A stretch of 64,000 nucleotides of DNA from Sminthopsis crassicaudata. Lineage: Eukaryota. This document shows, piece after piece, positions 45,218 through 46,459 of the stretch. The notes below the pieces were generated by a model. The model was given only the letters and a program-made list of their open reading frames with translations. It was not told where the DNA came from and did no database searches. The translations under genes and the position numbers were made by a program. Position 1 is the stretch's first letter, and each line of letters starts with the position of its first letter. The stretch spans positions 439,979,644 to 440,043,643 of the forward strand of contig NC_133619.1 of NCBI RefSeq assembly GCF_048593235.1. The letters run 5' to 3'.

Positions 45218-45240
45218 GGCAGGCGAGAGAGCAGGGGGCC

Positions 45241-45958
45241 TCTTTTGGGCCAGAACTTGAAGCAAGGTGCGAACTCGGTGCAATTGATAGGGACAATACG
45301 GATCTGATTGATGCAGTAGGATTGATTTCATCCTACAAGGAGGTGTTATGGGCCACCACTTGAAACAAGGTGCGAGCTCGGTGGAATTGGGTAGTAGTTA
45401 CCGGATTTAGCATGATTGATTCAGTACCATTGATTTCACCTTACCACAAAGAAGGGTTTCCTAGTGATAGAATAACGTTGGGTGTAGATTCAGTGTGGAG
45501 CATATAAGGGAGAAGGTCTCAGGGCAAGAAAAGACAAGCACACCACAAGCTCTCCGAGCCTCAGCCAGAATGACAGCTAGGGAAGACCAGAGAAGTGGTG
45601 GCGCTCCTCCTGCCTCCCGCCCAGAGACCAAGACACGTTCAGGAGCACCTCGGGAAGCTGGCAGAAGCAGAGAACACAAAGGACTGGCCGCAGCACCTTA
45701 AGCTCTCCCAACCAAGGAGAGACATAGGCCTAGAAGAAAGCTAACCGCCCCTCCCCATCCCCCCAAAGGAGACAAGACTTTGAAAGAGACAATAAAGGAT
45801 TTGCACTTTAACACCTGGCTGCATTTGGGGTGATTACTGGACCCACACTAAGCCTGCCTCCAGAAGCCCCGCCTTCCCCCACTCCCGCACCCACCCACCC
45901 ACCCCCGGCACAGAAACCTGCTCCCACATAACGTTACATCTTAGACAAGAATATTACA
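45241..45958 (+). mobile_element. Solo LTR in array unit 1, with duplicated 5' ~103 bp
   Basis: TSD GGGGCC at 45235-45240 and 45959-45964; matches the reverse complement of the 25839-26416 LTR at both ends; catataag and aataaa present. Confidence 0.88.
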
Positions 45959-46459
45959 GGGGCCCCGGCCAGATCCCGGCAAGCTGTGGATCAAAACCCT
46001 CCGCTTCAGAGACCCTCACCTGCCCGGCTTCTCTCCACCCCCTCCCACCTGGCTTCCCAGGGCTGCCGCAGAAGACAACGTTCCACCCGCTAGGGGGCCG
46101 CCTCTTGCGTGCAAAGGAGCATCAGCCCACGGTGCTCCAAGGGCCACCGAAACTGGCCACGCGTGTCCTTTGATCCCACAGTGTCTCTGCCGGCCCCGGA
46201 TCCCAGAGTCACCAGAAAGCAGGCGCAAGCACCCACACGGGCAAAAGGGATTCTGCCAAAACCTTTTCTCTCCAGACCCCGGGAAACTGGGCATGGACTC
46301 GAGGGCCATCACTTGAGGAATCATCGGTAGTGCCGCGATACAGCTCTACAGGAAATGCCAGCCGACCTGATGGACGAAAAGCGGACAAAACCGCTCCCGA
46401 AGCGATGCTGACCATAGTCAGCAGAAGCAAGAGAACATTGTACACAGCCACGACAAAAG

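Follow-up and report, generated by a model that had tools for sequence, protein, structure and literature searches.

The window analysed here, a stretch of 64,000 nucleotides corresponding to 439.98-440.04 Mb of contig G000:C3, runs from about position 43120 onward into a tandem array of head-to-tail 5.8-kb units that occupies 440.02-440.15 Mb of the same contig. The array comprises 22 whole units of 5779-5854 bp each, at least 99.5% identical to one another, and every unit carries an intronless ORF together with a solo LTR placed head-to-head with it; genome-wide, the LTR and the ORF next to it each occur in 22 full copies. Coordinates of the features are summarized in Table 1. Neither edge of the array falls within the LTR; the left edge is in L1 sequence. 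At the right edge (L032 5394-6318) a partial 23rd unit lacks the gene; its identity to the array drops from 100% to approximately 70-80% over 900 bp, with the GC bias described below for the whole units. A decayed gene copy was suspected beyond this edge, sought, and not found.

Table 1. Positions, within the window, of the features discussed in the text.
Feature	Position	Strand	Remarks
First 5.8-kb array unit	43120..48925	.	more units follow to the window end
Predicted polyadenylation signal of the gene	44269..44274	-	
Intronless ORF, 211 aa	44422..45057	-	same product in 22/22 units
TATA-like box CTTAAAA of the gene's predicted promoter	45174..45180	-	
GC box of the gene's predicted promoter	45190..45198	-	
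CCAAT box of the gene's predicted promoter	45213..45217	-	
Left TSD, GGGGCC	45235..45240	+	
Solo LTR proper	45241..45960	+	720 bp
Second 5' module copy of the LTR	45344..45444	+	starts with 'tgttatgggcc'
Site of the family's U3 CCAAT box	45472..45481	+	lost in the array LTR; ATTGG in other copies
TATA box of the LTR, CATATAAG	45501..45508	+	kept
Putative conversion tract in the LTR	45545..45870	+	326 bp, 98.5% identical to the middle of a distant solo LTR
Polyadenylation signal of the LTR, AATAAA	45791..45796	+	
Right TSD, GGGGCC	45961..45966	+	
Old L1 3' remnant in the CpG-rich zone	46137..46458	+	58% GC; score 115.5, shuffle maximum 61.5

The predicted promoter of the gene has CCAAT, GC, and TATA-like boxes (45174-45217), all of which lie outside the LTR and its TSD, and from the sequence we infer a transcription start near 45145-45150, such that the predicted 5' UTR consists of host sequence and the predicted start sites of gene and LTR are approximately 380 bp apart. 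Of 20 sequencing runs listed, 9 contain part of the stretch, all of them of presumed type and none typed as RNA, and assembled contigs of four of these 9 were compared with it. In run X5 a contig ends at 45154, close to the predicted start, but this was discounted, given that a contig of X6, from the same study, continues into the LTR. An 1800-bp contig of run X1 spans the ORF, the promoter, and the LTR; all it demonstrates is that this junction is not confined to the assembly. A second ATG (Met10, 45028-45030) aligns with the starts of paralogues, and the protein may accordingly be 202 aa long.

The product is an orphan. No Pfam family matched the 211-aa ORF above the cut-off, and none was common to more than one of seven family members. 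A sequence search of the PDB gave a best E of 1.3, the best Atlas score was 0.79, and the sole outside relative (P0001) is 58% identical; a paralogue used as query yielded no relative. Structure modelling yielded a pLDDT of 44 at first and of 74 in a second model built from 7 sequences; the protein is predicted to form a helical bundle, and fold searches returned generic helical bundles only, none of them specific (best E 0.038; best Z 8.2, rmsd >5). A second cluster of the family, at C3:581.85-581.99 Mb, holds nine matches, one with a stop, and the members that were aligned are 24-31% identical to the array protein. Four identical copies in this cluster lie at 7.4-kb spacing, and its ORFs have 43-47% GC versus 63% in the array. 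The six second-cluster loci that were fetched contained no match to the LTR family of the array. Upstream of these six paralogues there are CCAAT-like boxes, accompanied in 5/6 by a TATA-like box; a CCAAT-to-TATA spacing of 38 bp is common to the array gene and four of the six, a post hoc observation that is only suggestive. At the DNA level the array promoter and flank could not be aligned to paralogue upstream DNA: a nhmmer comparison gave nothing significant, and in pairwise promoter tests against the paralogues one of 12 stood out (2/200 shuffles), in the wrong register. A literature search, with subscription journals and supplements outside its coverage, found no paper on this array, and the gene family is apparently undescribed.

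An earlier note on this DNA had reported an LTR bounded by GGGGCC at 45235..45964. The element is real, with both TSDs found and both junctions present in all 22 units (the chance of this 6-mer at a given spot is approximately 4e-4), but the reported range took in the left TSD and four bases of the right one. Similarly, the head-to-head layout with the minus-strand gene was recognized correctly, and its distance of about 25 bp measures 23 bp from the CCAAT box. The LTR does possess a TATA box (45501) and an AATAAA (45791) of its own on the plus strand, in the U3-R order. The motif 'tgttatgggcc', which had been taken for the 5' end, sits at 45344, where the second of two tandem modules approximately 103 bp apart begins; the 5' part of the element is doubled in this way also in a copy on contig C7. 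The true termini are TC...ATTACA, that is, ATTACA is present at the 3' end and the 5' end is TC, where many family copies start with TG. The U3 CCAAT box of the family (ATTGG), found in 11 of the 15 copies in which its site was located (20 examined, 5 not located), is absent from the array LTR. In the 3' part (45871-45920) there is a C-rich stretch of approximately 40 bp that varies among units and is missing from the copy at 25839-26416. Beyond the LTR, the host flank contains at 46087..46098 (+) a CTCF-like motif (chance expectation 0.03 in 2.3 kb); it was pushed 726 bp further from the promoter by the LTR insertion, and one unit of 22 varies at 46098.

The LTR belongs to an abundant, dispersed family with matches on contigs C1-C7 (3.24-Gb genome, 8 contigs). 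Two genome searches gave 4807 and 4091 first-look candidates, and 40 of each were scored. Among the 40 scored of the 4807, the closest copy of the same subfamily, on contig C7, is 75% identical over query positions 29-636. A 6-bp TSD is usual for the family: it is exact in 7 of 27 copies and has one mismatch in 2, the remainder being copies whose end was not found, for which the wrong end was picked, or which have at least two TSD mismatches. The match previously proposed with the LTR at 25839-26416 holds in part, at 74% over 164 bp, but that element is on the minus strand, belongs to a different subfamily, and is barely alignable in the middle. Inspection of its flanks revealed no clear TSD; it is inserted within L1-like sequence.

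In composition the array LTR stands apart from its family, at 51% GC with 18 CpGs as compared to 39-45% GC and 1-9 CpGs in 16 other copies. Array-specific changes, the majority of them at non-CpG positions, amount per triplet to 31.8 AT>GC versus 8.9 GC>AT (240 non-independent triplets, drawn from 16 of 20 copies). Non-CpG AT>GC rates in the two halves of the LTR are 0.128 and 0.076 in the array versus 0.027 and 0.019 in comparators, and in five parts of the L1 remnants they are 0.115-0.231 versus 0.038-0.078, where two parts have only two comparators and in two of the five the AT>GC rate of the array is not clearly above its own GC>AT rate. Judged by these rates, the GC and CpG richness of the LTR stems from a GC-biased shift common to the L1 remnants of the unit, and because LTR and L1 are affected alike, the composition of the LTR is no sign of co-option. 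The shift is the pattern expected from concerted evolution by GC-biased non-allelic conversion, as described in bioRxiv 10.1101/135152. Given that its size in the LTR is similar to that in the L1 remnants, the LTR appears to have been part of the unit through much of the history of the array; arrival shortly before the first duplication and arrival soon after it fit equally, and late arrival into an old array was also considered, which these data do not distinguish from early arrival. Together with the two junctions shared by every unit, this bears out the suggestion that the LTR was amplified with the gene.

A more local trace of conversion is found within the LTR. The 326-bp tract listed in Table 1 has its partner in a solo LTR of the short subfamily approximately 2 Mb away (G000:C3:438053863-438054188; L023, also L034 4864-5189), which has a different TSD of its own and family-type ends. 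Of 27 sites that set the array LTR apart from every other aligned copy, 25 are shared by this distant LTR. The tract is likely the product of ectopic gene conversion with the array as donor, the alternative being an assembly error. Its length is of an order similar to the mean tract of 250 bp given for GC-biased non-allelic gene conversion in bioRxiv 10.1101/135152, with which it also shares the GC bias; the difference is that LTRs of different subfamilies approximately 2 Mb apart are involved here, typical copies of which are approximately 84% alike.

Variation among the 22 whole units (67 variable sites) was compared with an L1 remnant as neutral reference (32/2534), a comparison of low power in which the variable sites are not independent. 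The ORF has no variable site in 636 positions (p=0.0013), and nine are found in the 720 positions of the LTR (p=1.0), four of them inside the C-rich tract. Since the promoter boxes lie outside the LTR and the LTR varies like junk, we hold it likely, with moderate confidence, that the LTR is a passenger in a protein-coding macrosatellite and not the switch of the gene. The earlier proposal of an enhancer or bidirectional promoter finds no support in the tests made here: the core boxes are outside the element, its own CCAAT box is lost, and its variation equals that of a dead L1. Nevertheless, at a distance of only 23 bp some effect of the LTR on the promoter is likely.

The course of events under the passenger interpretation would be as follows. 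A provirus would have integrated once, in the germ line, into the open GC-rich flank of a pre-existing promoter, and recombined down to a solo LTR, which is the general route described in PMC11334065. Unequal crossing-over, with edges outside the LTR, would then have amplified the 5.8-kb unit, gene and LTR together. GC-biased non-allelic gene conversion would keep the units alike and, as a by-product, would have enriched the LTR and the L1 remnants in GC and CpG. Selection would act on the ORF but not across the entire LTR, and the gene would be transcribed from its own promoter. That the promoter is older than the LTR we infer only from its position outside the TSD.

The strongest competitor is that the gene acquired its upstream enhancer by co-option of the promoter-proximal LTR half and that selection or drive helped to fix it in all units, which is possible but on balance doubtful. 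Its proximity to the CCAAT box agrees with such a role, as do two GC boxes seen in none of the 16 other copies, a gene-facing CCAAT near 45390, and the elevated CpG count, and human LTRs acting as enhancers are amply documented (PMC11007075). The unit-wide GC shift would, however, by itself give GC boxes and CpGs. Variable sites are also few near the promoter, with one in the 300 bp of LTR sequence nearest the promoter (p=0.25) and 2/483 in the promoter plus the proximal LTR half (p=0.15), but significance is attained solely in a window chosen post hoc (45058-45652, 2/595, p=0.048), and the low variation may be conversion-tract spill-over from the conserved ORF. Furthermore, the proximal half diverged faster than family copies did among themselves, the first 200 bp being 80% identical to these copies, which are 92% identical to each other. 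In an extended version, which we consider rather improbable, GC-biased conversion would have erased the CCAAT box of the LTR and written the GC boxes, the CpGs, and the gene-facing CCAAT, producing an upstream enhancer for a 22-copy marsupial gene of the germ line or embryo, in a new family, and the rewired cassette would afterwards have been exported to the LTR 2 Mb away. If the LTR were a true enhancer, it would illustrate how conversion bias can create a regulatory element.

A bidirectional promoter of the LTR9 type known from human DSCR4/DSCR8, which would transcribe the gene to the left and an LTR RNA to the right, is suggested by the head-to-head arrangement, the spacing of the predicted starts, and the retained TATA box and AATAAA. 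It is very improbable, as the first exons of DSCR4/8 are LTR-derived according to PMC11007075, as opposed to the predicted host-derived 5' UTR of the array gene. The gene moreover has its own full box set outside the LTR, and the CCAAT box of the LTR is lost. Least probable of all is that the LTR serves as a silencing handle, whereby repression by KRAB-zinc-finger proteins or piRNAs, both established pathways of LTR silencing, would spread to the promoter, confine the gene to reprogramming windows, and buffer its 22 copies: the family is abundant (4807 first-look candidates) and adjoins a CpG-rich promoter, but this LTR has diverged by approximately 20% from its family and its many CpGs are not suggestive of long-term germ-line methylation.

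An LTR beside a promoter or within a macrosatellite unit is in itself ordinary, and it is the setting that is worth following. Of greater interest than the LTR are the conversion tract 2 Mb away and the family of genes for predicted helical proteins, with its 22 identical array copies, nine second-cluster matches, and one outside relative, in an organisation that recalls the DUX4, USP17, and TAF11-like arrays. The locus further offers a clean natural case in which a GC-biased shift builds a CpG-rich zone from L1 and LTR remnants, and it cautions that CpG richness of an array LTR should not be taken for co-option.

Comparison with known systems places the array among the macrosatellites. In human, RNU2 and TAF11-like macrosatellite units each hold an LTR (PMC5687341; PMC3795722). 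The RNU2 macrosatellite resembles the array in its head-to-tail unit of approximately 6 kb, its near-identical copies, and the combination of a self-controlled gene with one LTR per unit (PMC3795722; PMC5687341), but its product is an snRNA where the array encodes an orphan protein. It differs also in that the LTR of the array adjoins the promoter, and in that an LTR is suspected as founder of the RNU2 array (PMC3795722; PMC5687341); with its edges outside the LTR, the present array gives no sign of having been founded by it. GC-rich multi-kb units that each encode a protein are shared with TAF11-like (the unit of which contains an MLT1E3 LTR), RS447/USP17, D4Z4/DUX4, and CT47 (PMC5687341), and the array has the near-identical head-to-tail multi-kb units and, in 22/22, the intact ORF that characterize protein-coding macrosatellites; in contrast to these human examples, its protein is without a Pfam or solved-fold match. 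With the LTR9 of DSCR4/DSCR8, finally, it has in common that an LTR heads the gene and may fire in both directions (PMC11007075). In DSCR4/DSCR8, however, the LTR itself contains the first exons as well as key Sp1/CRE sites (PMC11007075), whereas the core boxes and predicted 5' UTR of the array gene are host sequence, and a host core promoter contained in the LTR is not what we find here.
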